In this document: positions 17,768-38,360 of the stretch, piece after piece | How the letters are laid out: every line of letters begins with the position of its first letter | How positions within the stretch are numbered: position 1 is the first letter of the stretch | Sequence record: SRR22947727_1191 | DNA length: 38,498 nucleotides | Reading direction: 5' to 3' (one strand) | Notes under the pieces: model-generated | Database searches by the model: none | What the model was told of the DNA's origin: nothing | Seen by the model: the letters and a program-made list of their open reading frames with translations, nothing else | Translations under genes and position numbers: made by a program

Positions 17768-18214
17768 ATGGCTGTTAGAAGATCATTTGCGATAGAAGAT
17801 GGAAACCTTGGTGGCAGAACTATTTTGTCTGCTCGTACACAATCGTATTCAGATATTGATTTAACGTTTAAAGCCAAACCTTCTGGAGACGTTTACAAAA
17901 AAACAAATGCAGCAGATGTTAAACAGGCTGTAAAGAATATTCTTTTGACCAATAAAAATGAAAAACCTTTTCTCATGGATTTTGGTGGAAGTTTAAGTGA
18001 TTACTTATTCGAACTAGATAATGACCTTGAAATTGATATAATGCGATCTCGTATTATAGAAACAATAGAAATATACGAGCCTAGAGCCCAAGTTCTAGAC
18101 GTAGATCTACTGTACGCTGAAGGAAGTAATGCAGTAAACGTAACAGTAACTTTTCAAATAGTAAATTCATCAGAGATAATATCATTTGATTTATCGTTAA
18201 CGAGGCTTAGGTAA
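17768..18214 (+). CDS. gp25: Baseplate wedge / sheath initiator gp25
   Basis: YSDIDL.F, VKQAVKNILLT...EKPF..DFG..L..YLFE, YEPR, L.RLR. Confidence 0.93.
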   Translation: MAVRRSFAIEDGNLGGRTILSARTQSYSDIDLTFKAKPSGDVYKKTNAADVKQAVKNILLTNKNEKPFLMDFGGSLSDYLFELDNDLEIDIMRSRIIETIEIYEPRAQVLDVDLLYAEGSNAVNVTVTFQIVNSSEIISFDLSLTRLR

Positions 18215-20067
18215 TGGCTAAAACAGTAAAATCCGCGGATCTTGACTTTAACACGATTAAAGCAAGATTAAAAGATTATTTTAAATCAAAATCAGAATTT
18301 TCAAGTTATGATTTTGACGGAGCTGGTCTTGATAATCTTTTAGATGTTTTAGCATATAACACTCACCTCAATGCTTTAACAGCAAACTTCTCAATCAATG
18401 AATCATTTCTAACTACTTCACAGCTTCGAAGCTCTATGGTGTCTCATGCTCAAGGGTTAGGTTATACTATTAGATCACGAAAATCATCAAAAGCTGCACT
18501 AAATCTATCTCTTAATTTGTCAGGAGTTGTTAATCGACCTGCAACTATTAGACTTGCTAAGGACACTACATTTTCAAGTTCTGTCGATAATACCTCTTTT
18601 ACATTTAGAACTCTAGAAGAATACGTTGCAAAAGACGATGGAACTGGTTCATATGTTTTCAAGACTGAAAGTGGATCTGATCAGATTCCTGTTTATGAAG
18701 GAACAAGAAAAAGAAAAACATTTATTGCCGGTGAAAAGAATGAAAGACAATTGTATGTGATTCCTGATGAAACAATTGATAGAACTACTGCAACTGTTAA
18801 TGTTTTTGATACTAGTACATCACAGTCGTTTATTAGTTATGTTCCTCTTGAAGAAGCTATTCAAATCAATGCAAACACTACGGTATATAGCATTTCAGAA
18901 GTTCCTAATGGATTTTATGAAATCAACTTTGGCGATGGTACTTCATTTGGTAAATCGCCTGAACCCGGTGAAAAAATAGTAGTTGATTATATTTCAACTA
19001 AAGGCCCTTTAGCAAATGATGCTACTCTTTTTATACCTACATCAGATATTACTATCAATGGAGTAGATTATTCTCTTATTACAGTGACGGCAGTCGAGTC
19101 ATCTGGTGGAGCCGATAAACAGACTATTGAATCAATTCGTCAACTTGCTCCTATTGCATTTGCTTCCCAGAAAAGACTCGTTACTTCTCTTGATTATAAA
19201 GCAATGATTGAGACTAATTTTCCTCAAGTAAGAGATGCTTCTGTGTGGAGCGGAGATCAGAATGTTCCTATTGATTATGGTGCAGTATACATGTCCCTTA
19301 ATTTTGAGCCAGGAATATCTTCAGCAGTTCAACAAACAGTAAAAGATGCTATCACTACAAATTATACTAATAATCTTGCTGTCATGTCAATGACTCCTAA
19401 GTTTGTGGATCCTGTTTACGTCTTTCTTGAATGTAATGTTCAATTTGATTTTGATCCTGCATTAACTGGTAATACCCTAGCTCAAACTGAAGAGAATATT
19501 TATCAGTATATTGTCAAATACTTCAATACAAATCTAAATACTTTTGATAGAGTATTTAGAAAATCAAATATGCTTACCGAAATTGATGCACTCGATGCTT
19601 CTATTCTGTCTACAACTATTGACGTAAAAGTTCAAATGAGACAAGATGTGACCACCGGCATCGAAAATGTATTTGACTTATCTTACCCATGTAAAATAGC
19701 TACACCTGATGATGTTTTCTATAGAGTGCAGTCAACAACCTTTAGTTATTTTACTGGCGGAAGTAATATTATTGCACAAGTTAAAAATAGATTAAACAGC
19801 ACTGTTCTTCAAATTGTAGATTTAGACGGAGTTGTATTGTTAGATAACTGTGGTCAGTACAGCGCAGATGATGGAACAATTAGCATATCAAATCTAAATC
19901 CTGCACGAGTGACTGGAGGCGTAGACTTCTTGAAATTTGCAGTAACTCCACAGAATGAAAACACTGTTCGTCCTCTTAGAAATTACATACTTACACTTGA
20001 TAGATCCGAGTCTTCATCGACTGCAAAACCAGACAGACAAACAACATCGCTTGAAGTAATTCTATAA
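18214..20067 (+). CDS. gp6: Baseplate wedge subunit gp6
   Basis: LDF..IK..LK.Y......F..YDF.G.GL..LLDVLAYNTH, NESFL...QLRSS.VSHA..LGY, Q.RLVT..DY. Confidence 0.95.
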   Translation: MAKTVKSADLDFNTIKARLKDYFKSKSEFSSYDFDGAGLDNLLDVLAYNTHLNALTANFSINESFLTTSQLRSSMVSHAQGLGYTIRSRKSSKAALNLSLNLSGVVNRPATIRLAKDTTFSSSVDNTSFTFRTLEEYVAKDDGTGSYVFKTESGSDQIPVYEGTRKRKTFIAGEKNERQLYVIPDETIDRTTATVNVFDTSTSQSFISYVPLEEAIQINANTTVYSISEVPNGFYEINFGDGTSFGKSPEPGEKIVVDYISTKGPLANDATLFIPTSDITINGVDYSLITVTAVESSGGADKQTIESIRQLAPIAFASQKRLVTSLDYKAMIETNFPQVRDASVWSGDQNVPIDYGAVYMSLNFEPGISSAVQQTVKDAITTNYTNNLAVMSMTPKFVDPVYVFLECNVQFDFDPALTGNTLAQTEENIYQYIVKYFNTNLNTFDRVFRKSNMLTEIDALDASILSTTIDVKVQMRQDVTTGIENVFDLSYPCKIATPDDVFYRVQSTTFSYFTGGSNIIAQVKNRLNSTVLQIVDLDGVVLLDNCGQYSADDGTISISNLNPARVTGGVDFLKFAVTPQNENTVRPLRNYILTLDRSESSSTAKPDRQTTSLEVIL

Positions 20068-21193: not shown

Positions 21194-23485
21194 ATGCCAC
21201 GTAAAATAATAAGCACAGGTACTTTTGGAAATGACGGAACCGGCGATGATCTAAGAACCGCCGGCGGAAAAATTAATGATAATTTCCAAGAACTTTATAA
21301 CGATATTGCTAGTTTAACACTGGCAACAGGCGGTTCATCATCATTTAGCGGAATACAATTTGCAAGCGATTCTGTAAATGGTCCTTACATTGTTTTTGAA
21401 GGTGCTACTGCTGATTCTTATGAGACACAGCTTGGAGTTATTGATCCTACTGTAGATAGGACAGTTCTTTTACCTGATGCATCTGGCACAGTAGCACTTA
21501 CATCAGATATTAATAGAAATTCTATTCTTCGTATTAAAAACAATAGCGGTGAGCTAATTGATTCTAGCATTGCTATCAATCTTATTCGAAAATATTCTAT
21601 TGACTCTGCTGAATTAGCAGCTTTGTCAGTTGATTCTGCTTTAGTCATTCAATTAGTTGATTCTTCATACATTCAAGCAAGAGTTACATTGCCGAATCTC
21701 GATTCTGCCATTGTGTTAAAATTGATTGATGTAAACAGTGTTGACTCTGATGAATTGGAAGATATAGTAGATTCTGGTTACGTTGCGCTAAGACAAAGCT
21801 ACGATTATAATCTTTTGGAAAACAAGCCAAGCATTCTTGATTCTGGTCACGTTAAGAGCCTTATGGACTCTGCTACAGTCAAACCGCTGATAGGTATGCC
21901 AATCGCTTTCGATACTATTGATAGTGCTGTGCAATGGGGTACAAGAAATCTTACTACGCCATTCTTAAGACCTACTGTCGACAGTTCAGTTGATATTGGT
22001 ACAAGCTCACTGAAATTTAGAGATGCTTATATTGGTGGCCACATATACACCGGTGGAATTAGACCACTTGCTGATAGCACATATGATATTGGTGATTCGA
22101 ATCACAGATTTAAAGATTTATATCTGTCAGGCAGTACAATTTATCTTGGTGATGTTAAGCTTAAAGCTGAACAGGCTGGATCTGCTCTTAAAGTATATGA
22201 TGCAACTGATACTGAAATTTCATTCGGCGGTCTTAACCAAGCTCAGGTAGATGCTCGAATTACATTGAATACAAATGATTATGCAACTGAAGCAGAAGCA
22301 TCAGCTTATGCCGATAGCGCGATCAATAAACATTTACCTATTGGCCAAGCCGGCGAAATGCTCTTGTATCAAGACAATAATACGAGAACATTAAAGAGAA
22401 CTAAGTTATTCTCAGTCAATGATAAGTTTGTAGAATTTTATGATGAACTTTTAGAAGAACAATCCGACGCACCTACACTTCAGGATGTGTTTAATACTTG
22501 GTCAAGATTTTCTCATGACAACAGCGGTATATATCCTGCAAACGCATCTGAAATGAATGCTTGGGTTTATAACTCCGGTCCAAATACAATATCTCAACCA
22601 TTAAATACTGGTACCGCAACTGGATTCTATTCTTTTGAGAAATATGAAGGCTATACGCACACTGCAAGATTTACATCTACAGATGCAGACAATGATATTG
22701 GATTTATGGTCATTGGCTTTGTAATTGATGGCGGAATAGAACATACGCTTACTGCAGTAAGACAGTCTAACGGCGGGATCAATGGCATTGGAACATGGGC
22801 TCTTGTTTATAATATCGGTCAAACAAGCCAAGCAATATTAGTGAATAACTCGTCAACAGCCCCAGGAAGTGGTGGTTGGAGCCAATGGACTAATGGTACT
22901 ACGATCTCTGCTGTGAAGAGTGGTAAAGATCTTACAGTTACAACTTCTCAGTTTAATAATACGTCACTTGACAATTCTACGGATATTACATTTGATCTAT
23001 CATCAGATTCACGTACATCTAGATTTGTAGGTCCTGTGCCATATGGTTATGGTGCTCAGAGCCAAGGCGGCCTGACAGTTAGTAATATTTCTTTTGTCGC
23101 GGATGATGCAGAAAGACTTTATTGGTTAGACAGCTCAGGTACATTTGTATATGAATATGATGGTTCTCTAGTACAATGGGTAGCAAATGATGCAGCAGGC
23201 TTAGATTCTGCAACTGGAAATATCTTCCACAATAATAAGACAGGTAGAACCTATTATATTGATGGTGATTCAGCACATGCTATTGGATCAGTAAGACAAT
23301 TTAACGATGTAATTTATCAAAGGCCAGTAAATAGACTACCAGACTCAGACATGATCGGAGATCTAGGGTTAAGAGCAGGAATGTTTGCGACAGCAGACGG
23401 AGTTAATTGGGACCCTGCAGGTAAAAGTGGATCAGTACCATACCCAGTATTTTGGGATGGAGCCACGTGGAACGCATTATATTAA
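21194..23485 (+). CDS. Tail fibre/connector with gp9/gp10-like N-terminus and Asp-Ser repeats
   Basis: I..G...NDGTGD.LR.AG.KIN.NF.ELY; P..DS..DIG....RF.D.Y fibre repeats; about 21 DS dipeptides. Confidence 0.75.
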   Translation: MPRKIISTGTFGNDGTGDDLRTAGGKINDNFQELYNDIASLTLATGGSSSFSGIQFASDSVNGPYIVFEGATADSYETQLGVIDPTVDRTVLLPDASGTVALTSDINRNSILRIKNNSGELIDSSIAINLIRKYSIDSAELAALSVDSALVIQLVDSSYIQARVTLPNLDSAIVLKLIDVNSVDSDELEDIVDSGYVALRQSYDYNLLENKPSILDSGHVKSLMDSATVKPLIGMPIAFDTIDSAVQWGTRNLTTPFLRPTVDSSVDIGTSSLKFRDAYIGGHIYTGGIRPLADSTYDIGDSNHRFKDLYLSGSTIYLGDVKLKAEQAGSALKVYDATDTEISFGGLNQAQVDARITLNTNDYATEAEASAYADSAINKHLPIGQAGEMLLYQDNNTRTLKRTKLFSVNDKFVEFYDELLEEQSDAPTLQDVFNTWSRFSHDNSGIYPANASEMNAWVYNSGPNTISQPLNTGTATGFYSFEKYEGYTHTARFTSTDADNDIGFMVIGFVIDGGIEHTLTAVRQSNGGINGIGTWALVYNIGQTSQAILVNNSSTAPGSGGWSQWTNGTTISAVKSGKDLTVTTSQFNNTSLDNSTDITFDLSSDSRTSRFVGPVPYGYGAQSQGGLTVSNISFVADDAERLYWLDSSGTFVYEYDGSLVQWVANDAAGLDSATGNIFHNNKTGRTYYIDGDSAHAIGSVRQFNDVIYQRPVNRLPDSDMIGDLGLRAGMFATADGVNWDPAGKSGSVPYPVFWDGATWNALY

Positions 23486-23496
23486 GGAAATAAGAA

Positions 23497-24858
23497 ATGC
23501 CAGCTATTATTACAGATGAACTTAAACAACTTATTGCTCGAGATTTCTTCGATCAGTTTGTGCTTGGTACTGCTGATTACTATGCTGGTATCGGCCGCTC
23601 CGAGCAGTGGGATAGCCAAGACACAGTTCCTATTCCAGTCAATACACCAGGTGAAATTGAGAAATTCCAAAATAGCCTTCAAGCTGTAAAGAAAATTGAA
23701 GGTGTATCTCAGGTTGTTCCTCGTAATAATTGGTCAAGTGGTCAAATTTATTCACAGTTTGATGATTTGCAAGCTGGTTATCCAGCGAATGCTTACTATG
23801 TCATGAACTCAAATAATCATGTTTACATGTGTCTTGAGACAGGTAGAAATCTATTTGGTGTTGCTGTTCCTTCTACCGTTGAGCCAACAGGATCTAACTT
23901 AAAGTCATTTAGACTTGCTGATGGATATGTTTGGAAATTTCTTTATACTATTAGTGCAGCAAGAGCTAATGACTTTATGTCTTCTAACTTTATGCCTGTA
24001 CAAAAACAAGGGCTAACTGATTCTAACTCAACTGGCATTCAACTGCAACAAGAAGAAGTGCAAGATGCTGCAGTAGCAGGAGAAGTTCTTAACATTATCC
24101 TTGTAGATGGTGGTGTTGGATACACGTCAAATCCTAATATCACTATTACTGGAACTGGCTTAGGTGCTCGAGCAGTATGCGATATCGACTCGGCTACTGG
24201 TGAACTTGTAAGAATTCGTATGTCAGACAGTGGTGCGTTTAACCATGTTGTACACGGCGCTGGATACACAAGAGCAAAAGTTACTATCACCGGAGGTGGT
24301 GCAACTGTTGATGCTAAGGCTAGAGCAGTGATTGGCACTAATGATTCAGGTGTAGGTAGAGATCCTCGTATTGATCTTAAATCTGCTGGCATCATGTTCC
24401 ACTCTAAACTTGAAGGTTTTGATAGTGATTTGATTATTGATCAAGACTTTAGACAGGTTGGTCTTATTAGAAATCCTAAAGATTATGCTGGATCTAAATT
24501 CACTCGTACTACAGGCAGTGCGCTAAAGCGTATGGAGTTATCAAGCATTATCACAGCGTTTACTCAAGACAAGATTATGGAAGGTGCTACATCACTGGCA
24601 CAAGCATATATTGATGAGGTTGATAGTAATGGACTTTACTATCACCAAACTTCTGTAACTGGATTTGATGATTTCGTCGATGGCGAGTTGGTAGAAGAAA
24701 TTAATGGAGCTGGTGAAGGTATTATCGATTCAGCTCATCAGCCTGGCACTCCTGAAGTTGATCCTATGTCTGGAGCAGTCTTATACATAGATAATAGAGG
24801 ACCTATTGAAAGATCAGCTGCTCAGTCAGAAGACATTAAGATTATTATTCAATTCTAA
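23497..24858 (+). CDS. gp8: Baseplate wedge subunit gp8
   Basis: MPAIITD, VVPR.NW..G..Y, YYVMN....VY.CL, DGYVWKFLYTI, FRQVGLI.NP, SG.VLYIDNR..I.R...Q.EDIKIIIQF. Confidence 0.9.
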   Translation: MPAIITDELKQLIARDFFDQFVLGTADYYAGIGRSEQWDSQDTVPIPVNTPGEIEKFQNSLQAVKKIEGVSQVVPRNNWSSGQIYSQFDDLQAGYPANAYYVMNSNNHVYMCLETGRNLFGVAVPSTVEPTGSNLKSFRLADGYVWKFLYTISAARANDFMSSNFMPVQKQGLTDSNSTGIQLQQEEVQDAAVAGEVLNIILVDGGVGYTSNPNITITGTGLGARAVCDIDSATGELVRIRMSDSGAFNHVVHGAGYTRAKVTITGGGATVDAKARAVIGTNDSGVGRDPRIDLKSAGIMFHSKLEGFDSDLIIDQDFRQVGLIRNPKDYAGSKFTRTTGSALKRMELSSIITAFTQDKIMEGATSLAQAYIDEVDSNGLYYHQTSVTGFDDFVDGELVEEINGAGEGIIDSAHQPGTPEVDPMSGAVLYIDNRGPIERSAAQSEDIKIIIQF

Positions 24859-24869
24859 GGGAATAAAGA

Positions 24870-27800
24870 ATGGCCATTACACTTAACAAAACTCTGTTTC
24901 CACAGCGCTATCGTGATGATTTTGCCGACAGCGATGGCTATTATCGTATTCTATTCAATAGTGGTAGAGCGCTTCAAGCTCGTGAATTAACACAGCTACA
25001 AACTATAATTCAAAACCAGATCAAAAGGTTTGGCGATAATATCTTTAAAGAAGGTGGTGTAGTTAAGCCTGGTGCTTCTGTATTGAATAACGCGTATGAG
25101 TATATTAAGCTTAATGTTACTACTTACAATCTTCCTTCAACATATAATTCTCTAATTGGTACAACTTTCACCGGTAATACCTCAGGTGTTCAAGCTAAAG
25201 TATTAGAAGTAATTCCTTCTGATGGTGTTGATCCTTCTACTCTATATGTTCAGTATCTTAATGGTCCAGCAGCAGTAGCAGGAGCTACTACTGTTAGAAT
25301 GAGTCCTACAGAAACTATGACAAATGGAACTGTTACTTTAGAAGTACAGACTACAAACACTCCTGCTAATCCAGCTACTGGTAGAGGTATTCGTTTATCT
25401 ATCGATACCGGTGTTTACTATGCGCAAGGTTTCTTTGTCTACACTGAAAAGCAATCTCTACTTATTTCTAAATATTCTGATAGCATCAATGAAGTTGTAG
25501 GCTACAAAATCACAGAGCAGACTATCAACGTAGATGACGATGGTGGTCTATATGATAACCAAGGGTTACTTCCTAATATCTCAGCACCTGGTGCTGACAG
25601 ATATAGAATTACTTTAGAGCTCGCAAAGCAAAGTGAAATTACATCAACTGATAATTTTATTCCAGTAGTAACTATCAAGAATGGCGTAGCATTTAAAGTT
25701 GTAGATACAAATTCATCTTACAATAAAATTAATGATCTGATTGCACAAAGAATTCATGAGAATTCTGGTAACTATATCGTCAATCCATTTAAAATCAGCT
25801 TTAATGAAGACTCTGCCGCTACTCATTTGCAGATGAGAGTAAGTGATGGTGTGGCTGTCATGGATGGTTATCGAGTTTCGAGAAACGTTCCTGTTACTCA
25901 GCGCATAATTAAGCCTATTACAGATTTTGAATTTAATAATCAGAAAACATCAGCAACATACGGTAACTACGTTGAAGTAGATGCATCTACTCCAGCTAAT
26001 ATGACAAGAATGCCAAATATTAACTCATTTGAGACATTAAATATTAGAACTTCTACGGGATATGGTGGATCTACTATTGGTACATGTAAACTAAGAGCAG
26101 TCTCCGAAGATGCTGGAAATCTATATAGATTCTACATTTTTGATATTCAGATGAATGCAGGTAGAAGCTTTAGAGAAGCAGTAAGCATTGGCACATCTGC
26201 AACAGTTTACTTTAATGTTTATAGACCTCTTTCAGTTGCTGAGCTAAAAGACGTTACTAAAAATACACTTCTATTCCCTATTCCAAAGAATAGACCTAAG
26301 TCAATCAGTGATATTGATTTAACAGTACAAAGAAAATTTACTATTACTTCAAGTGGTTCTGGTACATCTTCTATCTCAGTTTCAGCTACAGGTGAAACCT
26401 TTGATAATGTAAATGACTGGGTGTTTGCGGATTCCACTGGTTTCTTAAGTAGTGTATCCACTAGCGGTGCTGGAACAAATGGTGCTACATTCTCAGGTCT
26501 GCCTATATCATCTGCTACAAATGGAATTGATGTTCTTGCTTACGTTAATAAGTCACAAGGCACTGTAAGAACTAAGACAGCACAAGAAGATACAGCTACA
26601 ATTACTCCAGCAGCAGATGGATCTCTAGATCTTGGATATGCTGATGCTTATGAAATTATAAGAGTTAGAGACCAAGATTCTGATGGTGTAAATTTAAGAA
26701 ATAACTATGTTTTTGATGATGGCCAAAGAGATAATTTCTATGATAGGTCAAAGCTTCTATTAAAAACTGGATCTGCAGCTCCAGCTAGTGGTCAAGTTTT
26801 TGTAAGGTTCAAGTATTTTGAGCATGGTGCCGGCACTAATGGTGATTTCTTTGCCGTTAACTCTTACTCTGGTCAAATAGATTATAAAAACATTCCTGCA
26901 TATAGAACAGCGTCTGGTATTAACTATAATCTAAGAGAAGTTCTTGATTTTAGATCAGTAAAAGATGGTTCTGGTAATTTTGCTAATGCAGTTACTGGAG
27001 CTAGAGTACATGAGCTGCCTCAGGTAAATGACTTAATATCATCTGATATTACTGCGTATCAGCGCAGAAGAAACATTCTTACAATTGACAGAGATGGGGT
27101 CCTCTCTTTAGGAAATGGCCGATCTGGTGATTCTCCTCCTGCTCCAGATACTCCAGCAGGAACACTACCAATTTATGATATTGTGTTCGGAGGTAATACT
27201 CTTGATGAAAATGATCTAAAGGTCATTAAGATTGAACATAAAAGATATACTATGAAAGATATTGGTAGAATTGAAGACCGTATCGATAAACTTGAAGATC
27301 TTACCGCTTTAAGCTTATTAGAAATTGATACTAAAAACTTTAAAGTGTTAGACTCTGCAGGAAATGACAGAACTAAATCTGGCTTCTTTGTGGACAATTT
27401 TACTACTCAATTGTATTCTGATGTTAGACAAACAGCTTATAGAGCTTCAATTGACCCGATGGAAGGATATGTCAGACCTACATTTGTAGAAAATAACATT
27501 AGATTGATATATGATTCTGATCTTTCTTCTAATGTTGTAAAGAAAGGCGACAATATTTACCTGAAACACACTGAAGTTGTATATCAAAATCAGTCATATG
27601 CATCTCAATCTATTAGAGTTAATCCATTTGATGCAGTCTTGTATGAAGGACATGTTGACCTTTCTCCTGCATCTGATGAATGGAGAGAAACTAAAGTTAG
27701 AACTAAGAAGATTATCGATGGTGGCTCTAAACTTGATACAAGTCAAGCGACATTGTGGAATAACTGGCAGTGGAATTGGGGTGGCACAAAAATAAATGAT

Positions 27801-28517
27801 CTAAAAGTAGGTGATCAAACCAATGTAAAATCTACAACTTCTGGCAATTATCTGAATAAAAAATATAATAAAATTGTTTCAGAAGAAACAATATTAGAAG
27901 TAATTGCAGAACGGGTTGTAAACGTAGCTTTGCTTCCTTTTGCTCGGTCTAGAAAAATATATTTTAAATCACAAGGTCTTAGACCTTCATCAAAGGTCTG
28001 GTTATTCTTTGATGGAATTAGAGTCGATGACTGGGTCAGAGAAGAAACTTTCCAATTCTGCTGCGACGATCCTAAGGAGTATGGAAATATTCATGACAGA
28101 GCTACTCAACACCCAGAAGGAGCTACTGTATTAGAAACTGATCAGTACGGTGCAATTGAAGGATCTTTCTTCTTGCCTAATACTAACAATATTAGATTTA
28201 GAACAGGAACAAATGAGTTTAAGATCTTAGATATTAGTGCGGATGATGAAACTGCTACTGGATCTATAGGAAGAACTACATTTATCTCTACTGGATATTT
28301 AGATACAATTGACCAAGATATTCTTTCTACAAGATTGCTTACAGTCAAAGGACAAAGTTCTAGCCAATACATCCCTCCTTCATCAGATGGTTGGGGTGGC
28401 GGTGACGGCGGTGACGGCCATCATACTAACAACAGTAGTGCAAATTCATGTCCGGCGCCGGACGACGGAAGCCTTGGCGGGTTAGCTGATGCAGGATTCG
28501 GCGGCGGTTGGGTATAA
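24870..28517 (+). CDS. Large virion structural protein, DUF4815/VrlC-like (N-terminal part)
   Basis: Y.DDF.....YYRILF..GRALQARELTQLQT, APGADRY, RYTMKDIGRIE.RI..LE, K.GFFVDNF, L.PASD.W. Confidence 0.88.
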   Translation: MAITLNKTLFPQRYRDDFADSDGYYRILFNSGRALQARELTQLQTIIQNQIKRFGDNIFKEGGVVKPGASVLNNAYEYIKLNVTTYNLPSTYNSLIGTTFTGNTSGVQAKVLEVIPSDGVDPSTLYVQYLNGPAAVAGATTVRMSPTETMTNGTVTLEVQTTNTPANPATGRGIRLSIDTGVYYAQGFFVYTEKQSLLISKYSDSINEVVGYKITEQTINVDDDGGLYDNQGLLPNISAPGADRYRITLELAKQSEITSTDNFIPVVTIKNGVAFKVVDTNSSYNKINDLIAQRIHENSGNYIVNPFKISFNEDSAATHLQMRVSDGVAVMDGYRVSRNVPVTQRIIKPITDFEFNNQKTSATYGNYVEVDASTPANMTRMPNINSFETLNIRTSTGYGGSTIGTCKLRAVSEDAGNLYRFYIFDIQMNAGRSFREAVSIGTSATVYFNVYRPLSVAELKDVTKNTLLFPIPKNRPKSISDIDLTVQRKFTITSSGSGTSSISVSATGETFDNVNDWVFADSTGFLSSVSTSGAGTNGATFSGLPISSATNGIDVLAYVNKSQGTVRTKTAQEDTATITPAADGSLDLGYADAYEIIRVRDQDSDGVNLRNNYVFDDGQRDNFYDRSKLLLKTGSAAPASGQVFVRFKYFEHGAGTNGDFFAVNSYSGQIDYKNIPAYRTASGINYNLREVLDFRSVKDGSGNFANAVTGARVHELPQVNDLISSDITAYQRRRNILTIDRDGVLSLGNGRSGDSPPAPDTPAGTLPIYDIVFGGNTLDENDLKVIKIEHKRYTMKDIGRIEDRIDKLEDLTALSLLEIDTKNFKVLDSAGNDRTKSGFFVDNFTTQLYSDVRQTAYRASIDPMEGYVRPTFVENNIRLIYDSDLSSNVVKKGDNIYLKHTEVVYQNQSYASQSIRVNPFDAVLYEGHVDLSPASDEWRETKVRTKKIIDGGSKLDTSQATLWNNWQWNWGGTKINDLKVGDQTNVKSTTSGNYLNKKYNKIVSEETILEVIAERVVNVALLPFARSRKIYFKSQGLRPSSKVWLFFDGIRVDDWVREETFQFCCDDPKEYGNIHDRATQHPEGATVLETDQYGAIEGSFFLPNTNNIRFRTGTNEFKILDISADDETATGSIGRTTFISTGYLDTIDQDILSTRLLTVKGQSSSQYIPPSSDGWGGGDGGDGHHTNNSSANSCPAPDDGSLGGLADAGFGGGWV

Positions 28518-28529
28518 GGAGTAAAGTGA

Positions 28530-30098
28530 GTGTCTCAAAATAGTTTAGGTTATCAAAATAATTCTCATCCTTTAGCGCAGTCAATCTTTATTGATGATCC
28601 GAATGGCCTCTTTTTGACTAAAATCGACTTGTATTTTAGATCAAAAGATGCTACTCTTCCAGTTCAAGTTCATCTAAGACCTATGGTAAACGGATTTCCT
28701 TCAAATGATGTAATCGTTCCCCAGTCTACAGTGTTTGTCAATGGGCCTGATATTAATGTTTCTGATGATGCATCTGCTGAAACAGCATTTAAATTCCAAG
28801 AGCCGGTTTATCTAAAAGGATTTGTTGACTACGCTATTGTAGTGCAGTGTCAAACTTCTGATACTCAGATCTACATTGCACAAGTAGATGAGTACGTTTT
28901 AGGAACTACAGCAGCTCGAGTTAATAAGAATCCAGCTGTTGGTACTATTTTCTACTCTCAAAATGGAGCCACTTGGACACCTGCACAGAATCAGGATTTA
29001 AAATTTAGACTTCACAAAATGTCGATGACATCTACATCTGGATCGATTTATCTTAAAGCTGCTTCTTTGCCTGAAAGATTACTTCCTATAGATCCTATCT
29101 TTACAACTAATGGCTCTTCATCCGTTAGAGTTTCAGCAGAACAGGCAGGTCTTATTGTAAACGACCAAGTCACTATACGAGGTATTAATGCTGCTGTTGG
29201 TGGTATTGCCGCCTCAGCATTGAATGGAACACAAACCGTTACTGCAGTTGATTGGACAGGTTATACATTTAATGCTGCGTCTTCAGCTACATCTAATGAT
29301 CAAGGCGGTGGTGAAGGGGTATACTCCTCTCAAAATTATCCGTTCTCACACTTCTACTCTAATATTCAAATGCTGCAGCCAGTAGGAACTACATTCAGCA
29401 ATAATATTAGAACATCTCTTAGTAAGTCATATGCTGGAACTGAAACCGCATATGGTAAAGAAGTCGACTTTACTGGTACAGTGCACGGAGAAACTCAGTT
29501 CTTTACAACTGCTAGAGTTGCGATGAATGACAGCATCGGTGAAGCGAATCATGGAATCAACTTTAGCACACTAGATTACAAACTTGATATTTCGACTACT
29601 GACTCTCAAGTTACACCAATGCTCGATCTACAAAGAGCATCAATCAATCTTATTGACAATATTATCGATAAACAGGATTCTGCTTCAACAAATGGATTCA
29701 ATGTTCCTCTTAATTTTGTCAATGAAACTGATCCAAAAGATGGAAGTTCTGCAGCAAAGCACTTAACTACACCGATCACTCTCTTAGAAGATGCAGTAGG
29801 TCTTAAGATTCAACTTGCAGCTAATAGACCTTCTGGCACAGATTTCCAAGTCTACTATAGAACTTCAGAAGATGGTGTAGATATTAGAAATGTAGATTAC
29901 AAAGAAGTTACTGAAATAAGCAATAACGGTACAGATGATAACATTCTAATCTATAGAGAATATGAATACCTTGCGGGAGGTCCAGGTGGAGATCTTAATG
30001 CATTCACTACTTTCCAAATTAAAATAGTGTTTAGGTCAACAAATTCTGCACTGGTACCTCGTATTAAAGATTTAAGAGTTATAGCATTGAGCGTATAA
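28530..30098 (+). CDS. Virion structural protein, DUF4815/VrlC-like C-terminal part
   Basis: GTG start with RBS AAGGAG; PLAQS.F, G.FLT.IDLYF..KD...PV, F.SQNG.TW...Q.QDLKF, F..FQIKIV......A.VPRIKDLRVIAL. Confidence 0.85.
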   Translation: MSQNSLGYQNNSHPLAQSIFIDDPNGLFLTKIDLYFRSKDATLPVQVHLRPMVNGFPSNDVIVPQSTVFVNGPDINVSDDASAETAFKFQEPVYLKGFVDYAIVVQCQTSDTQIYIAQVDEYVLGTTAARVNKNPAVGTIFYSQNGATWTPAQNQDLKFRLHKMSMTSTSGSIYLKAASLPERLLPIDPIFTTNGSSSVRVSAEQAGLIVNDQVTIRGINAAVGGIAASALNGTQTVTAVDWTGYTFNAASSATSNDQGGGEGVYSSQNYPFSHFYSNIQMLQPVGTTFSNNIRTSLSKSYAGTETAYGKEVDFTGTVHGETQFFTTARVAMNDSIGEANHGINFSTLDYKLDISTTDSQVTPMLDLQRASINLIDNIIDKQDSASTNGFNVPLNFVNETDPKDGSSAAKHLTTPITLLEDAVGLKIQLAANRPSGTDFQVYYRTSEDGVDIRNVDYKEVTEISNNGTDDNILIYREYEYLAGGPGGDLNAFTTFQIKIVFRSTNSALVPRIKDLRVIALSV

Positions 30099-30325
30099 TG
30101 AGAGACAGACTTATCCGAGTAGAAAATGAGCCAGGCCTAGCTAGAGATGAAAACACAGGAGCAATTGTCAATACAAATGTATCTGAGATAGCAGCTGCTC
30201 GTCAAAGAAAAGCTCGTCAAAAACAAGAACGAGAAGAGCTAGAAATGTTGAAGAGCGATGTCAATGAAATCAAGTCTATTCTTAATGTCATAGTGGATAA
30301 GTTAAATGCCTCGGATAGAAGATAG
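30098..30325 (+). CDS. Small coiled-coil protein following DUF4815 gene
   Basis: VE..PGL.RD..TGAIVN.N followed by heptads LKSDVNEIKSIL. Confidence 0.8.
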   Translation: MRDRLIRVENEPGLARDENTGAIVNTNVSEIAAARQRKARQKQEREELEMLKSDVNEIKSILNVIVDKLNASDRR

Positions 30326-31037
30326 TTTACAAATATATGACACTCTTAACGAATGGTTGCGTGCAATTAACACACAATCTGAGTATATGGGTGATCTCGA
30401 TAGCATTTCCACTGTCAGTCAGTATAGAGGGCTTCCTACTCTTGTTCATGATGGACAAGACTCAAACTTTGTAGCTGCTCTTAACTGGCTTCATGAACAA
30501 AATGACAGCATTTCAGGTCTCCTATTTGGAGGAAACGTAGGCGGTGTTGTAACAGTAAACGAGGTCAGCACTCTACGAGTAGTAGCACCTGAAATTACAA
30601 ACGCTGGGTTTTTAAGAGCAGATAGTGCTGATATTGACAGTGCTACTATTACGTATTTGTGGGGAGATGATTCTACAGTACGCAGTTATTTGCATTATGA
30701 TAGTGGTGAATTCCACAGTTTAAGAGTTGACAGCGGAATCACTGCATCTACAATTGATTTTGACAGTGGCCACATCGATAGCATCTCAGGCCTCTGGTTT
30801 AATTATACATCTACAAGATCTCAACAACTGTATGCAGACAGTGCACATATTCCAAATCATGATACATTTGAAACAGTGTGGATGAATGACTCTATGAGAA
30901 TTGATAATTTAGTAATATCAAGAGGAGATTCTGCAATACTTAGCCATGCTAAGGAATTTAGACTCATTGATGTTGCTGGCAATACGTTGAAGGCTGGTTA
31001 TATATTCTCCACTGACAGTGCACCTAATGTACCTTAG
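30306..31037 (+). CDS. Asp-Ser-rich fibre-like structural protein (paralog A)
   Basis: GDLD..., S.FVAALN.L fibre N-terminal motif; 15 DS in 243 aa; clearly similar to the next gene. Confidence 0.7.
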   Translation: MPRIEDSLQIYDTLNEWLRAINTQSEYMGDLDSISTVSQYRGLPTLVHDGQDSNFVAALNWLHEQNDSISGLLFGGNVGGVVTVNEVSTLRVVAPEITNAGFLRADSADIDSATITYLWGDDSTVRSYLHYDSGEFHSLRVDSGITASTIDFDSGHIDSISGLWFNYTSTRSQQLYADSAHIPNHDTFETVWMNDSMRIDNLVISRGDSAILSHAKEFRLIDVAGNTLKAGYIFSTDSAPNVP

Positions 31038-31039
31038 GT

Positions 31040-31047
31040 TATAAATA
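31040..31047 (+). promoter_or_regulatory. Late promoter
   Basis: Exact intergenic TATAAATA. Confidence 0.8.
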
Positions 31048-31067
31048 GGATAAAAGGCTAGGAAGAT

Positions 31068-31736
31068 ATGGGTCGCAAAATAAGAATCAATACCTATAAT
31101 AGCATAGGAACATGGGTTGCTAAAAACAACCTTATGGCTGGCTATGTCGGTGATCTAGACAGCTTAGATCCACATTTTGCTTTATCGGATGATGATTCAA
31201 GCATTGTAAGTGCAATCAATCACTTGCATGATGAGATCGATAGTGTTAATAATCTTTTATTTAATCCTGGCGGAACTCTTTCAATTGACCAGTTAAACAC
31301 TCGAGTTCTTACTGTAACAGATTCTCTTAACACTGGTTATTTAAGAGCTGATAGTGCACATATCGACAGTGCATTTATTAAAAATATCAGTGGTAGTTTC
31401 TTACATTATGATAGTGGTGAATTCCATAGACTTAGAATTGACGATAGCCTTTCAGGTGGATTTATCAATGCAGATAGCGGACGAATAGATAGTATCTCCG
31501 GCATATTTGCTAACTATAGTACTATTAAAACCTCAAATCTTCTTGTAGATAGTGCAGATATTACGGTGCTTAGTACAAGCGTATTTACAGCGAATACATT
31601 TAATATGCAAGGTGTGTTGAATATAGATAGTGTAGGTATTAGAGCCGCAAAAGAATTTACGATTCAAGATGTAAATGGCACAATCGTATTTGGAGGATAT
31701 TTGCTATCTACAACAGATAGTGTGGGTGTAGCATAA
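31068..31736 (+). CDS. Asp-Ser-rich fibre-like structural protein (paralog B)
   Basis: VGDLDSL...SIVSAIN.L; 13 DS in 222 aa; shares LHYDSGEFH.LR.D and IDSISG with paralog A. Confidence 0.7.
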   Translation: MGRKIRINTYNSIGTWVAKNNLMAGYVGDLDSLDPHFALSDDDSSIVSAINHLHDEIDSVNNLLFNPGGTLSIDQLNTRVLTVTDSLNTGYLRADSAHIDSAFIKNISGSFLHYDSGEFHRLRIDDSLSGGFINADSGRIDSISGIFANYSTIKTSNLLVDSADITVLSTSVFTANTFNMQGVLNIDSVGIRAAKEFTIQDVNGTIVFGGYLLSTTDSVGVA

Positions 31737-31745
31737 GGATTTATT

Positions 31746-32804: not shown

Positions 32805-32812
32805 GAGTAATT

Positions 32813-33283
32813 ATGAAATTGAACACAATTTATGATGAATCAAGTGCAGTATTCATCGATGAAAAAAAGACTACGATACGAGTTAATGCTATTGAGAAAA
32901 ACTTAAAAGGCGAATCAACTTTCGAAAGAATTATCGTAGTATCCCCTACACCAGTATTTGAAGAGTTTCAAAAGCAAGTATCTCTCGAACTTGTAGAAGA
33001 AAACACTAATAACTGGCTTAACTCAATCAAGGCTGAGCAAGATGAGTACTCAAAAATTCTTATCAAAAAAGTTAAGGAGGAGATCGGAGTTCAAGATGTT
33101 TCGTCGACGTTTAACCCAGCGACACTTACTCCGGAAGACATCTTTAAAATTAAGCTCCAAGCTTTTGAGATCGAGGAAGTTAAGAACTCTAAAAATCGTG
33201 AACTCAAGGCTAGGATTCGTAAAGCTGGAACCTTCATGGAAGTTTTGGCGTATACTTCGGCGTTAGTAAACTCTGAACTTTAA
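32813..33283 (+). CDS. Hypothetical protein linking fibre genes and enzyme cluster
   Basis: RBS AGGAG; F..KL.AFEIEEVK.SKNRELK.RIRKA motif; TAATG coupling to the radical SAM gene. Confidence 0.75.
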   Translation: MKLNTIYDESSAVFIDEKKTTIRVNAIEKNLKGESTFERIIVVSPTPVFEEFQKQVSLELVEENTNNWLNSIKAEQDEYSKILIKKVKEEIGVQDVSSTFNPATLTPEDIFKIKLQAFEIEEVKNSKNRELKARIRKAGTFMEVLAYTSALVNSEL

Positions 33284-34686
33284 TGTCATATCCTAGCAAG
33301 ACGTTTTGCGCCTTGCCTTGGATGCATATATCTACTAGGCCAAACGGCCATATGAGAGTATGCTGCACTGCCAATGCATCCGGTGTTCAGAACGCACAAT
33401 CCACAGATAAGACAGCAAGTGAAGCTGGAGTCCTTCGAAGAGACGATGGATTACCAGCTAATCTTGCTACGACTTCGCTAAAAGAAGCATGGAATAACTC
33501 TTACATGCGTGAAACACGTAAGGCGATGATGTCAGGAAAGCAGCCTGTTTCATGCCTAAAATGTTTTAAAGAAGAAGAATCTGGCCATAGATCTAAAAGG
33601 CAGTGGGAAACAGATAAGTGGATAAGAGAGATAGGTATTGATGACATACTGCAAGGATATGATCATGACACCGGCGAAGTTCCTCCACGTATACGCTATG
33701 TAGATCTTAGACTTGGTAGTAAATGCCAACTAGCATGTATTATGTGTAGTCCTCATGACAGTTCAGGATGGATTAAAGAACATAAAGAAGTGTGGCCACA
33801 ATTAAAAAACAGTAAATTAAAACAGACAATGGAGTGGGAAAAGGACTCTGGAAAGCTTGCTTGGTCTGGTGGTTCTTATAACTGGCATAAGAATAATCCT
33901 ATGTTTATAGAAGAATTATATGAACAGATCCCTACACTTAAACAGCTTTACTTTGCTGGCGGAGAACCTTTGATACATGACGAACACTACATACTCCTCA
34001 AAAAGATTATTGCAGATGGTTTTGCCTCGCAAATCGAACTCAGATATAATTCCAATGGTATGGAATGGAAGCCAGAACTTTTCGACCTTTGGAATAATTT
34101 CAAACGAGTCATCTTCCACTTTAGTGTTGACGCTATGGAAGATAGACTCGAATATATCAGATACCCCGCTCAGTGGTCTCACATATCAGGACAAATTCGA
34201 AGTCTTGATGAATACCCTTATGCAAACCTCACACTTACAACAGCCTACACAGTCATGGCCCTCAACATCCACCACTTGCCAGACTTCATCAAGTGGAAAC
34301 TCAAGTCAGGATTCAAGCTCCTCAACACCTTTTCTCAGGCTGGTGGAATGATTGACTGCCATTTAGCATATTGGCCACCACAACTAAATGTAAAAGCACT
34401 GCCTGAGTGGTATAAAAATGAAGTAGAACAGGTCTATGAAGAGTTTTATGATTGGCTTGATGAAAACTGGAAACTCACTGGTGCACCATCATACGAAGAA
34501 TATGATAAACATCCATATGTAAAGGATAGACTAAGAGGCTTGATTAGTTTTATGAAATCTGAAGACTGGTCTGTTAGATTATATGAGACAGCAGAGTGGT
34601 GTTACACTATGGCAGAAAAAAGGAGCCAAAATTTTGACTCCATCTTTCCTGAACTTGATTGGCTTAAATGGTATACTCAACGATAG
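33283..34686 (+). CDS. Radical SAM protein with N-terminal twitch/SPASM-like domain
   Basis: CQLACIMC (CX3CX2C), FAGGEP, YNSNG; N-terminal C.LPW.H...VCC...C..C. Confidence 0.92.
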   Translation: MSYPSKTFCALPWMHISTRPNGHMRVCCTANASGVQNAQSTDKTASEAGVLRRDDGLPANLATTSLKEAWNNSYMRETRKAMMSGKQPVSCLKCFKEEESGHRSKRQWETDKWIREIGIDDILQGYDHDTGEVPPRIRYVDLRLGSKCQLACIMCSPHDSSGWIKEHKEVWPQLKNSKLKQTMEWEKDSGKLAWSGGSYNWHKNNPMFIEELYEQIPTLKQLYFAGGEPLIHDEHYILLKKIIADGFASQIELRYNSNGMEWKPELFDLWNNFKRVIFHFSVDAMEDRLEYIRYPAQWSHISGQIRSLDEYPYANLTLTTAYTVMALNIHHLPDFIKWKLKSGFKLLNTFSQAGGMIDCHLAYWPPQLNVKALPEWYKNEVEQVYEEFYDWLDENWKLTGAPSYEEYDKHPYVKDRLRGLISFMKSEDWSVRLYETAEWCYTMAEKRSQNFDSIFPELDWLKWYTQR

Positions 34687-35345
34687 AGAACATCAATCTT
34701 TTTCTTAAATGATCCAATATACTCATTTGTTGTTTGGTGATATCTACGGCCACGTGTTGGATCACGGAAACCTACACCCATAAGAAGCAAAGGCTCTTCA
34801 TTGATACCTAAGATATTTTGTACATTTTCGCGGTGCATGCACTTACAGCAACCAGTTTGTAGACCAATAAGAGATGATGTCATGTTTACAAATCCTGCTG
34901 CAATGCCAATAGCCTGTTGTCTATCATTCTCTACGATGTCAGTCTCATCAAGCCTCTGGTCAGTATTTCTTTTATTTGTCAGCTCATGGCGTGTAAAGAC
35001 TAATAGAGTGTTAGCAAGCACCTGTGGATTAGTTCTAGCATATCCTTCAATAGGGCCTTTACCTTCAGTAAAGTATGTTTCATCATGAATAGCTTCAATA
35101 ATATCTCTATCCTGAGTAACAACAAGAGAATAGAATTGGGTATTTTGTTTTGTAGGACATTGTGTAGCAGAATGTACAATAAGTTGCAGTTGCTCAGGAC
35201 TTAGCTGACGACTTAAATCCCAGTTTCTTTGACATCGCTGTCCTTTTAGTACAGATTTATTAATGTGTTTAAAGAATTCAGGGTTATTATAGTATAAGTC
35301 TTGCTTTTGCTGTTTGATTTCAGATAGATTAGTGACTGCTGACAT
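34677..35345 (-). CDS. Nitroreductase-family (FMN-dependent) oxidoreductase
   Basis: QRCQRNWD, A..CPTKQN, GIAAG.V...S.L.GL.TGCC.C, LLMGVG. Confidence 0.8.
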   Translation of the reverse strand: MSAVTNLSEIKQQKQDLYYNNPEFFKHINKSVLKGQRCQRNWDLSRQLSPEQLQLIVHSATQCPTKQNTQFYSLVVTQDRDIIEAIHDETYFTEGKGPIEGYARTNPQVLANTLLVFTRHELTNKRNTDQRLDETDIVENDRQQAIGIAAGFVNMTSSLIGLQTGCCKCMHRENVQNILGINEEPLLLMGVGFRDPTRGRRYHQTTNEYIGSFKKKIDVLYR

Positions 35346-35372
35346 TATAATTCTCCAATAGCATTATTATCT

Positions 35373-35380
35373 TATTTATA
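35373..35380 (-). promoter_or_regulatory. Late promoter for nitroreductase gene
   Basis: TATTTATA (TATAAATA on the minus strand) 27 nt upstream of the ATG; RBS GGAG in between. Confidence 0.7.
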
Positions 35381-35405
35381 TATATTATTTTCATGGAGTA
35401 AACAA

Positions 35406-36455
35406 ATGTGGAAAGTGAATGAAATAGAGTGGATTGACCTCGAAACGACCACTTATTGCAATATCAAGTGTCCTGGTTGTCTGAGATCAAATTCTCGTTG
35501 GGCTGACAGTTTTATCAATAATGATAAAATGGACCTTGATAGAATCAAAGAGCAAATCACTCGCGATAAATTTCCTGCTTTACGTACTATCAATCTGTGC
35601 GGTAGCATCGATGAACCTATTTCTCATCCACAAATCATGGATTACGTTGATTGGGTTCTCAGCTTAGATGTATTTGTACATATTTCTACAAATGGATCAC
35701 TACGAAATGAGGATTTTTGGTTCAAATTAGGATCAAAGATGCCTCGTAGTAAAGGTGTAGGCATGGTCACGTTTGGTATAGATGGCACGGATGCTGAAAC
35801 ACATGTTAAATACCGTGTAGGCTCAGACTTTGATAAGATCATGAGAAATGCTGAAGCATTTATTGATGGTGGTGGTAGAGCACAATGGCAGATGATCTTG
35901 TTCGATTACAATGAGCACCAGGCTGAAGAAGCTCAACGTATGGCTATTGAGATGGGATTTCATAAGTTCAAGACTGTCAAATCTGCTCGTCCAAAAACAG
36001 TGATGCAACGAGAAGAGAAGATGGAATATAAAGCAGCAGAACGTGACACGCTGCCGAGTATCAAATGTAAGTATGTAGATGAGAAGAGAGTGCAAATCAA
36101 TAGCCTCGGCAATGTTATTCCATGCTGTTATGTCAATTCATATGACCTTGAATATAATACTGTGCCAAGCAAAGAGAAATATAAGAATCATATAAAATCA
36201 CTTAATAGACCGATACCAGATCCAGCTAATCCTGGAAAATACATTCAAGAGTATGCATATGACTATTTAGACGGATACGAGAAATTAGGAGGCATGCTTG
36301 CTAACAACATAGCATATAATGATATCGTTGACGTGATCGAAGGTGATTACTTTGCTATGATGCACCAGTCATGGAACACTGACAAGGCGGTCAGTATATG
36401 CAAGGACAGGTGCCAAAATAGAAGACTCGATGAGATGGACAGCACAATACTATGA
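35406..36455 (+). CDS. Radical SAM protein with C-terminal SPASM/twitch domain
   Basis: CNIKCPGC, ISTNGS, FGIDG; C-terminal C...G.V.PCC...C...C. Confidence 0.92.
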   Translation: MWKVNEIEWIDLETTTYCNIKCPGCLRSNSRWADSFINNDKMDLDRIKEQITRDKFPALRTINLCGSIDEPISHPQIMDYVDWVLSLDVFVHISTNGSLRNEDFWFKLGSKMPRSKGVGMVTFGIDGTDAETHVKYRVGSDFDKIMRNAEAFIDGGGRAQWQMILFDYNEHQAEEAQRMAIEMGFHKFKTVKSARPKTVMQREEKMEYKAAERDTLPSIKCKYVDEKRVQINSLGNVIPCCYVNSYDLEYNTVPSKEKYKNHIKSLNRPIPDPANPGKYIQEYAYDYLDGYEKLGGMLANNIAYNDIVDVIEGDYFAMMHQSWNTDKAVSICKDRCQNRRLDEMDSTIL

Positions 36456-37645: not shown

Positions 37646-38360
37646 GATACCGGTACTCGCCGAGAACGTGATTATGAAGCTATCGGGTGGAGCAGACAGT
37701 GCTCTTCTTTTGTGGCTCATCTGTAACGAGTGGACAAAACAAAACAAGCCTCTTCACGTATACACGATCACGGGTATACACAAGCAGAGACCGTGGCAGC
37801 CATATTATGCTCAACAAGTACTTGATTTCATGCATGAGCAGTGGCCGGATGTTCACTTTGCTCGACATGATACTCGACTCGTTGAAAATCCTGCTGATCC
37901 TCCTCTTCATCTCGATTACTCGAAGAATCAGTACGGCGAAACTCAAGAGCTCATGAAGATCGATATGATCGACGAAATCAAGCAGGATACACAGGTCTTC
38001 AATGCAATCACCTCGAATCCTCCTCTCAAGTACAAGGACTACTGGGGTATATCACCGATTATGGGAGACGTGTGGGAAAAAGGTGATCTGAAAGTGCGAG
38101 CATGGGAGACACGAGAAGAGAGAAAAGTCATCAATCAACACCATTACGACGGATTCATGGTCTGGTACTGTTCTCCATTCTTTCGGCACGACAAGAGCAC
38201 GATCATGAAACTCTATCAAGAACACGGACTTCTTCGTCATCTTCTACCACTCACAAGATCATGCGAGGGCTGGGACTACATGACAAAAAATTTCACACAG
38301 GAATGCGGACACTGCTGGTGGTGTAAGGAAAGAGAGTGGGCACTCAGTGTACTATCATAA
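37635..38360 (+). CDS. QueC-like PP-loop ATPase (7-cyano-7-deazaguanine synthase fold)
   Basis: LSGGADS PP-loop; PF...DK; TRSC...CGHCWWC.ER zinc motif; start reassigned to ATG 37635. Confidence 0.78.
   Translation: MSIEIPVLAENVIMKLSGGADSALLLWLICNEWTKQNKPLHVYTITGIHKQRPWQPYYAQQVLDFMHEQWPDVHFARHDTRLVENPADPPLHLDYSKNQYGETQELMKIDMIDEIKQDTQVFNAITSNPPLKYKDYWGISPIMGDVWEKGDLKVRAWETREERKVINQHHYDGFMVWYCSPFFRHDKSTIMKLYQEHGLLRHLLPLTRSCEGWDYMTKNFTQECGHCWWCKEREWALSVLS

Follow-up and report, generated by a model that had tools for sequence, protein, structure and literature searches.

The window analysed here is a stretch of 38,498 nucleotides (nt) from sequence record SRR22947727_1191. It comes from an uncultured marine phage, a T4-like myovirus, and represents the baseplate and host-recognition part of the genome. 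Searches with Pfam and PHROGs recognised a T4-type baseplate region in which the gene order is hub, tube, gp48/gp53-like protein, gp5-like lysozyme, gp25, gp6, a wedge protein, a gp9/gp10-type fibre, gp8 and two DUF4815 (VrlC-like) proteins. Downstream of the DUF4815 pair lie two small proteins of 243 and 222 amino acids (aa), two open reading frames (ORFs) without a family and then an enzyme cassette (Table 1). Our analysis concerns the dipeptide Asp-Ser (DS), which the tail-fibre-like proteins of this region carry three to five times too often.

We counted DS and the reverse dipeptide SD in 36 translated ORFs of the window and judged significance against 5000 whole-protein shuffles. The 763-aa fibre contains 21 DS where 7.2 are expected, gp8 contains 8 (2.7 expected), the 243-aa protein 15 (2.9 expected) and the 222-aa protein 13 (2.7 expected); SD occurs 6, 2, 0 and 1 times in the same proteins. 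None of the 5000 shuffles matched the observed DS count in the fibre or in either small protein, and the corresponding fraction for gp8 was 0.002. In three of the four DS-rich proteins, no other dipeptide is as over-represented as DS. Together these four hold 57 DS against 15.5 expected, and the remaining 32 ORFs hold 36 against 49.0. The observed/expected ratio (O/E) for SD is 0.58, so the excess is directional and goes beyond what local composition would produce.

An artefact of composition, or of a repeat or motif at the DNA level, has next to no chance of accounting for these counts. DS written GAY-TCN makes the DNA motif GANTC, and in favour of a DNA-level origin every one of the first 11 fibre DS is written with TCT, and DS codons account for 16 of the fibre gene's 19 GANTC sites. 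Across the window, however, GANTC occurs 148 times against 153 +/- 12 expected, so there is no DNA-level signal. Both Ser codon families are used: TCT encodes 12 of the 21 DS serines of the fibre, and AGT or AGC encodes 11 of the 15 in the 243-aa protein and 11 of the 13 in the 222-aa protein. ORFs outside the fibre set stay at a DS O/E of 0.55-1.21 in the two long related contigs described below.

These results bear out much of an initial annotation of the window. Its hand counts (21, 15, 13 and 8 DS, and no SD in the 243-aa protein) were all exact, the codon usage it reported (TCT in the fibre gene, AGT/AGC in the genes of the small proteins) agrees with the fractions above, and gp6, which it described as nearly free of DS, has none where 4.45 are expected. 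Composition, which a per-protein dipeptide O/E was to check, fails as an explanation, as SD is not enriched and the shuffles fall short. The proposal of selection at the protein level, with no DNA repeat behind it, also stands, given both Ser codon families, GANTC at expectation and DS columns that are 80-88% kept in the repeats considered below. We conclude that the DS excess is real and under protein-level selection. Two broader statements hold in part. The motif had been called pervasive in peripheral virion proteins, and this is true of the fibre-type proteins and gp8. The DUF4815 pair is at expectation (DS 8 against 8.0 and 3 against 3.2) and the wedge protein at 20067-21152 is not significant (3 against 1.25, shuffle fraction 0.12), so the motif does not extend over all peripheral virion proteins. 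The excess had also been placed in unrelated folds; it lies mostly in fibre proteins built of repeats, with gp8 as the one globular case.

Table 1. Features of the window, with positions in the 38,498-nt stretch unless residues are stated.
Feature	Position	Strand	Remarks
763-aa baseplate-docked fibre	21194..23485	+	21 DS; three-part architecture
Fibre N-terminal domain, T4 gp9/gp10-type	residues 1-45		PF07880 and PDB matches
Fibre DS-repeat shaft	residues ~120-310, nt ~21551-22123
Fibre C-terminal tail-fibre domain			phrog_33406 tail fiber across residues 381-739
gp8 baseplate wedge protein, 453 aa	23497..24858	+	phrog_438, E=1.8e-80; 8 DS
243-aa DS-rich protein	30306..31037	+	First of conserved tandem pair; period-5 repeat core; 15 DS, 0 SD
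222-aa DS-rich paralogue	31068..31736	+	~40% identical to 243-aa protein; 13 DS
gp6 baseplate wedge protein	18214..20067	+	PF21379, PF21871; DS-depleted
Two DUF4815 (VrlC-like) baseplate proteins	24870..30098	+	PF16075, E=4.8e-49; phrog_358; upstream border of host-recognition island
Enzyme cassette of host-recognition island	33283..38360		Mixed contents, next four rows
Two twitch-domain radical S-adenosylmethionine (SAM) proteins	33283-34686, 36452-37645		NCBIfam NF033640, E=6e-116 and 3e-64
Radical SAM/SPASM-like protein	35406-36455		Third radical SAM gene of cassette
Nitroreductase	34677-35345	-
PP-loop/QueC-like (QueC/TilS-like) protein	37614-38360
352-aa ORF	31746-32804		Directly after DS pair; no family; no tblastn homologue in 40 loci; similar-sized ORF at same place in contig G001
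156-aa ORF	32813-33283		Follows 352-aa ORF; no family; recurs in 10 loci
537-aa ORF	5615-7228	-	Between single-stranded DNA-binding protein and baseplate hub genes; no Pfam or PHROG family

The DS excess recurs in related viruses. A single-protein scan of viral contigs gave no confirmed locus, and a profile/alignment-based scan with the small proteins gave 40 loci that match the small-protein profile and share its conserved synteny. Among the 650 ORFs of at least 100 aa in these loci, 86 show a DS excess at Poisson p<1e-4, and these are nearly always the gp10-like protein, the tandem small pair or giant fibres. The fibre set reaches an O/E of 3.81 and 3.69 in contigs of 98 and 78 kilobases (kb), respectively. 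Their capsid protein is not enriched, with 3 DS against 2.1 and 1.6 expected. In the 98-kb contig the portal protein is not enriched either (4 DS against 2.2 expected), and the sheath and a neck protein have 7 and 8 DS against 3.6 and 2.8 expected.

We found no such excess in cultured relatives. Genome-wide DS O/E is 0.82-0.95 in pelagiphage Mosig, Phage C48C1, HTVC008M and Melnitz, with no ORF at p<1e-3, and none of the 139 ORFs of Mosig reaches p<0.01. DS is likewise not enriched in the equivalent region of P-SSM7. The fibre of cyanophage S-B68 was considered and rejected: what it has in common with the shaft repeat is only the half that lacks DS, and its 16 DS against 23.4 expected are no enrichment. 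Since the excess lies in the same genes of 40 loci and in none of six cultured relatives, the DS phenomenon is lineage-specific and restricted to fibre-type proteins plus gp8.

Two further local biases emerged from these counts. The major capsid protein of Methylophilales phage Melnitz (127893-129176) has 7 DS against 1.6 expected (p=1.2e-3) and is the sole ORF of that genome below p<0.01. Contig G001 encodes two proteins of ~580 aa with the reverse bias (L046:16560-18305 and L050:14461-16218, both on the minus strand), in which SD occurs 16 and 18 times against 6.2 and 6.3 expected and DS only 2 and 3 times. The first of these belongs to no PHROG family.

The lineage itself stands apart from cultured phages. 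gp8 is 35% identical to that of Phage C48C1 and 32% identical to that of Mosig, its nearest cultured matches, and a clade member's capsid protein shares 69% identity with that of C48C1 and ~61% with those of HTVC008M and Melnitz. SAR11, OM43 and cyanobacteria are the hosts of the nearest cultured relatives. When the region and the 243-aa protein were compared with cultured phages by megablast and tblastn, no match was returned, and a protein atlas search returned only unnamed viral clusters, at 0.90 or below.

We analysed the sequence context of DS. In the window, DS follows a hydrophobic residue (phi, position -1 counted from Asp) and is followed at +4 by another; position +2 is Ala in 18, Gly in 9 and Ser in 5 of the 56 sites with full context. 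In alignments, DS columns show little or no variation, and they belong to repeats that are gained or lost as whole units. Of the aligned cells, 88% of 403 hold DS for the small family and 80% of 239 for the gp10-like fibre, although identity between the homologues is only 21-56%. DS is a consensus position of repeats that vary by whole units, which supports a structural reading. Our preferred interpretation, to which we attach moderate confidence, is that DS punctuates the structure of fibre repeats peculiar to this lineage, and that these repeats come in two architectures. What is directly seen is register, periodicity, conservation and confinement to fibre proteins; the folds themselves, the part that DS plays as cap or corner and the lack of chemical modification are inferred. 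A literature search found no paper describing the motif.

The first architecture is the shaft of the 763-aa fibre and of giant fibres in relatives. The 763-aa protein begins with a docking domain, which matches PF07880 at residues 3-44 (E=1.3e-7, 32.4 bits against a cut-off of 25) and, in PDB, entries 9f4a (E=8.6e-5) and T4 gp9 1pdp (E=2.9e-4). The shaft unit reads phi-phi-D-S-A-x-phi-x-x-phi-phi-D and is often of 9 residues (for example LIDSAYVQAR); further examples are LDSGEIITLIDSAYVQARQ. Over 168 DS sites in six proteins, large hydrophobic residues peak at -2 (0.45), -1 (0.62), +4 (0.62), +7 (0.58) and +8 (0.47) against a background of 0.31, and Asp recurs at +9 in 52 sites. The modal spacing between DS sites is 9 residues (31 of 163 gaps), followed by 13 (12 gaps) and 14 (8 gaps). 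A docking domain shared between the gp10-like fibre and the small proteins was considered and rejected, as hhalign pairs only their DS repeats (probability 69%).

The hydrophobic peaks and the spacing of 9 place the shaft in the register of the N-capping beta-layer nonad MATKDDIAN, whose beta3 residue caps the next helix and is, according to Hartmann et al. 2016 (PMC4786415), "almost always D, N, T or S". Shaft units resemble these nonads of parallel trimeric alpha/beta coiled coils, which are represented by Tcar0761 (MATKDDIAN) and by several phage fibres, in the 9-residue spacing of a subset of units and in hydrophobic residues at beta1, beta2 and a. The shaft Asp falls at the beta3 N-cap position, and 20 of its 29 changes are to N, T or S. 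The two also differ. Position g (+3) is Tyr in 49, Asp in 16 and Glu in 15 of the 168 shaft sites, whereas the nonad has Asp, Glu or Gln there and Lys or Arg at e, which together close its capping network; and the gap is exactly 9 in just 31 of 163 cases.

The pattern phi-D-S-A-x-phi also matches a helix N-cap with a hydrophobic staple. In a low-confidence AlphaFold model of the fibre, 10 of 15 secondary-structure elements begin between -1 and +4 from a DS (p=5e-5 for random placement), with helices beginning just behind DS; 7 of 13 do so in the model of the 222-aa protein (p=0.05). In the shaft, a short beta-layer or turn would be built from the hydrophobic pair that precedes Asp; the next short helix would have Asp as its N-terminal cap and Ser in its first position, probably without chemical modification.

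The second architecture is found in the small proteins and many of their giant relatives. In its AlphaFold model, the 222-aa protein starts with helices, has the period-5 DS repeat in its centre and ends in a beta domain that is modelled with confidence; neither small protein matches a Pfam or PHROG family. Over 93 DS sites of the small family, hydrophobic residues peak at -3, -1, +4, +7 and +12, with +2 (Ala) and +9 also in pentapeptide register, and DS sites are spaced by 15 (14 times), 10 (9 times), 5 (8 times) or 11 (6 times) residues. An exhaustive profile search matched 658 cluster representatives, 130 of them at an E value of 1e-10 or better. Many are giant proteins of 1,000-5,000 aa with up to 15 matched stretches. 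Sequence statistics at the level of hits cover the 148 representatives that were listed, of which 93 have a DS O/E of at least 2 and in which the commonest spacings are 10, 15, 9, 5, 20 and 25. The representative P0067 has a near-perfect super-repeat, DSAYI-QFADI-DSAHI-DNVSI, which amounts to four x-x-[A/V]-x-I pentapeptides.

We compared the period-5 repeat with the pentapeptide-repeat proteins, which form a right-handed quadrilateral beta-helix and have the consensus A(D/N)LXX. A structure search with the 222-aa model placed such proteins at ranks 1-5, 13 and 27, over model residues ~58-195. MfpA (2bm4), AlbG (2xt2), EfsQnr (2w7z) and Np275/276 (2j8k) share with the small family the period of 5 and the kind of residue at the positions that face inward in the pentapeptide fold, small at i-2 and aliphatic at i, and 20-residue super-repeats further the likeness. 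They differ in that the small family has D-S at i+1/i+2 and not D/N at i-1, and in its virion fibre context with helical N-terminal and beta C-terminal domains. Four pentapeptides would build one coil of a pentapeptide-repeat-like beta-solenoid, along whose alternate corners DS would form ladders. Neither small protein is hit by a Pfam pentapeptide model, even with E relaxed to 10, and the best score on the relatives is 13.1 bits against a cut-off of 38 (PF13599, on the giant P0023). Foldseek of the 222-aa monomer model against PDB gave no match at E of 0.001 or better. By sequence, the small-family profile matches in PDB only the phage tail tip fibre 7z4b, and weakly (E=0.11), and a giant fibre matches nothing there.

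Two side features of this family are worth recording. P0023, a DS-rich metagenomic relative of 4642 aa, carries YadA-head repeats, an E1 FCCH-like domain and an antifreeze-type beta-roll match beside its period-5 DS module. In the small proteins, the C-terminal beta domain (residues 184-214 of the 222-aa protein; consensus FTIKD..G.IVL.GYLLST) is the sole confidently modelled part, with a predicted local distance difference test (pLDDT) score of 82-94. Its pattern presumably resembles that of the T4 fibritin foldon.

Substitutions at DS columns bear on the role of each residue. In the fibre, Asp is replaced by N (8), T (8), S (4) or A (4) among 29 changes, and Ser by A (18), N (11) or T (3) among 44. 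This pattern fits a cap or turn better than an acceptor hydroxyl. The dipeptide DT is avoided, with 5 against 11.4 expected in the four DS-rich proteins and 638 against 1161.6 in the 148 listed family hits. The same substitutions speak to a different structural role, in which ladders of DS would coordinate a divalent cation, Ca2+ or Mg2+ (both plentiful in seawater), and stiffen the fibre much as Asp does in RTX beta-rolls. Asp and a hydroxyl are regularly spaced along the repeat and the clade is marine, but there is no canonical metal-binding motif, and Asp changes to uncharged N or T in 16 of the 29 fibre changes. We consider cation binding unlikely.

Several observations weigh against DS as a structural punctuation mark. 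The AlphaFold models of the 222-aa protein and the fibre are poor in the repeats (mean pLDDT 65.0 and 49.8), so we used only their local secondary structure. The matches to pentapeptide-repeat proteins are weak (Z 4.4-5.3, root-mean-square deviation 3.1-4.3 over 115-127 residues, in 10-residue model blocks with a pLDDT of 43-56). Position e of the beta-layer nonad is Ser in the shaft and Lys or Arg in the published consensus. A paralogue in contig G001 (393 aa, 29 DS) has dense and irregular DS spacing. DS-poor giant homologues carry SN, DA, DN, DK, GS, DT, DE and other pairs at the aligned positions: DS fills 35 of 541 aligned cells in DS-poor giants against 133 of 216 in DS-rich giants, with register errors possible in these figures. 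The scaffold thus does not need Ser, and a generic cap or turn role therefore fails to explain why Ser is retained in 80-88% of cells in this lineage.

The baseplate wedge proteins add to these difficulties. gp8 is not built of repeats, yet 7 of its 8 DS are kept unchanged by 19 of 19 clade orthologues at 54-66% identity. Over the 20 sequences, 26.5% of residues and 8.6% of adjacent pairs are invariant, and Ser is invariant at 7 of 8 positions within DS against 4 of 27 elsewhere (Fisher p=3e-4). The gp8 DS sites are mostly missing from three outgroups. gp6 is depleted: three orthologues, not independent of one another, together have 1 DS where 11.55 are expected. Outgroup gp6 is not depleted (6 against 5.2 in Mosig, 2 against 4.2 in C48C1).

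These findings can be read as signs of a modification. DS might be a lineage-wide recognition tag whose Ser is modified, by O-glycosylation or otherwise, to give a coated fibre, with a GT8-like transferase and its carbamoyl-, amino- and methyl-transferase and radical SAM neighbours as candidates; we hold this to be doubtful. The enzyme would be phage-encoded and cytoplasmic, would come from the host-recognition island and would act on the fibres and the outer baseplate, a proposal to which we give a small chance. Ser is strictly kept although homologous repeats without DS exist, and gp8 DS sites are hyperconserved and gp6 depleted, as if off-target sites were selected against. The solenoid model, if correct, would place DS at exposed corners. 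GT8 matches occur in 5 of 5 clade contigs (2 of 5 over the Pfam cut-off) against 1 of 6 DS-poor cultured genomes, and 19 of the 40 loci have a GT8-like orthologue 2-6 kb past the DS pair.

Other evidence runs counter to a modified Ser. The five GT8-positive contigs come from one clade and so count as one event, and DS-poor Mosig has a 40%-identical GT8-like orthologue in its cassette. The window has no GT8 homologue and, by Pfam, no glycosyltransferase of any kind; GT2 and PF00534 (GT4-type) were each found in 0 of 5 clade contigs, which are 36-58% complete. The commonest replacement of Ser is Ala, and the capsid protein is not enriched in two clade members. In the available text of PMC7029224, these GT8 genes are read as serving host O-chain modification. 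We keep the tag as a minor alternative because the strict Ser, the hyperconservation of gp8 sites, the depletion of gp6 and the nearby GT8-like gene are otherwise unexplained.

A known precedent offers a comparison. Ser beside Asp is a proven glycosyltransferase target in the staphylococcal SD-repeat proteins, according to the available text of PMC3794999, and the SdgB/SdgA N-acetylglucosamine (GlcNAc) system described there resembles the phage case in its Asp-flanked Ser acceptor, its cytoplasmic glycosyltransferase and its surface fibre. The staphylococcal adhesins differ in having long uninterrupted SDSDSD runs, whereas phage DS sites are dispersed at fixed positions of repeats, 5-30 residues apart, and SD is not enriched. 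The GT4-type family PF00534 was found neither in the five incomplete clade contigs nor in the window.

The initial annotation had likened DS to the O-glycosylation sequon of Bacteroidota, and decoration of D-S-(A/I/L/V/M/T) sites on the virion by such a general system of the host is very improbable. As in that sequon, Asp directly precedes Ser in the phage proteins, often with Ala, Ile, Val or Leu after it, and 33 of 57 sites fit the three-residue motif. The third residue of the sequon is A, I, L, V, M or T and occasionally S, and Gly there abolished glycosylation in B. fragilis, in the available part of a review (PMC12871550). Gly follows DS at 9 of the 56 full-context phage sites, and N, D, Q, R, Y and H also occur there. 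Thr is normally a near-equal acceptor, Ser being only slightly preferred (PMC12871550, available part), but the phage proteins avoid Thr. The nearest cultured relatives infect the hosts named above. The Bacteroidota system works in the periplasm, on non-cytoplasmic proteins only (PMC12871550, available part). Tailed phages build their particles in the cytoplasm, which counts against such a system acting on virions. The sequon reading is thus not supported: DS lies in repeat register, DT is avoided, Gly is found as third residue, the capsid is unenriched and no enzyme tracks the motif convincingly. The co-occurrence check that had been suggested likewise found no enzyme family that cleanly tracks DS across genomes.

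The enzyme cassette downstream of the small proteins offered its own candidates. Homologues of the cassette recur in relatives, partly in Mosig, and the island of contig G001 also holds a carbamoyltransferase and a radical SAM gene. We considered the radical SAM genes as the source of a DS-modifying enzyme and rejected them. Of the 23 loci whose downstream flank is 6 kb or longer, 18 have a homologue; five DS-rich loci lack one, and DS-poor Mosig has a nitroreductase and one radical SAM homologue. A role of the cassette in modifying DS is unsupported.

The setting of these genes is a familiar one. Pelagimyophages and cyanomyophages have a hypervariable "host recognition cluster" that mixes tail fibres, glycosyltransferases and radical SAM cassettes, as described in the available text of Zaragoza-Solas et al. 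2020 (PMC7029224). Positions 30306-38498 of the window resemble this cluster: they directly follow the VrlC/DUF4815 genes and hold fibre genes and radical SAM cassettes, and relatives of the window also carry a GT8-like gene and a carbamoyltransferase. The difference lies in the fibres. DS-rich fibres are not mentioned in the available text of that paper, and cultured Mosig and HTVC008M have no DS-enriched ORF.

Tail fibres set the host range of phages, yet for the abundant marine T4-like phages they have hardly been annotated. Our analysis defines two unnamed repeat modules, a period-5 solenoid-like module and a 9-residue shaft, that account for much of these fibres, and an invariant DS is a simple signature for both. 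If DS is merely a cap or a corner, it provides a useful annotation and a lesson in fibre design. If instead DS is a tag, selection would keep its Ser strictly, fix seven DS sites in gp8 and purge DS from gp6 in the inner baseplate. A true modification would mean sequon-directed modification of virions in ocean phages, and the motif could then guide searches of viral metaproteomes.

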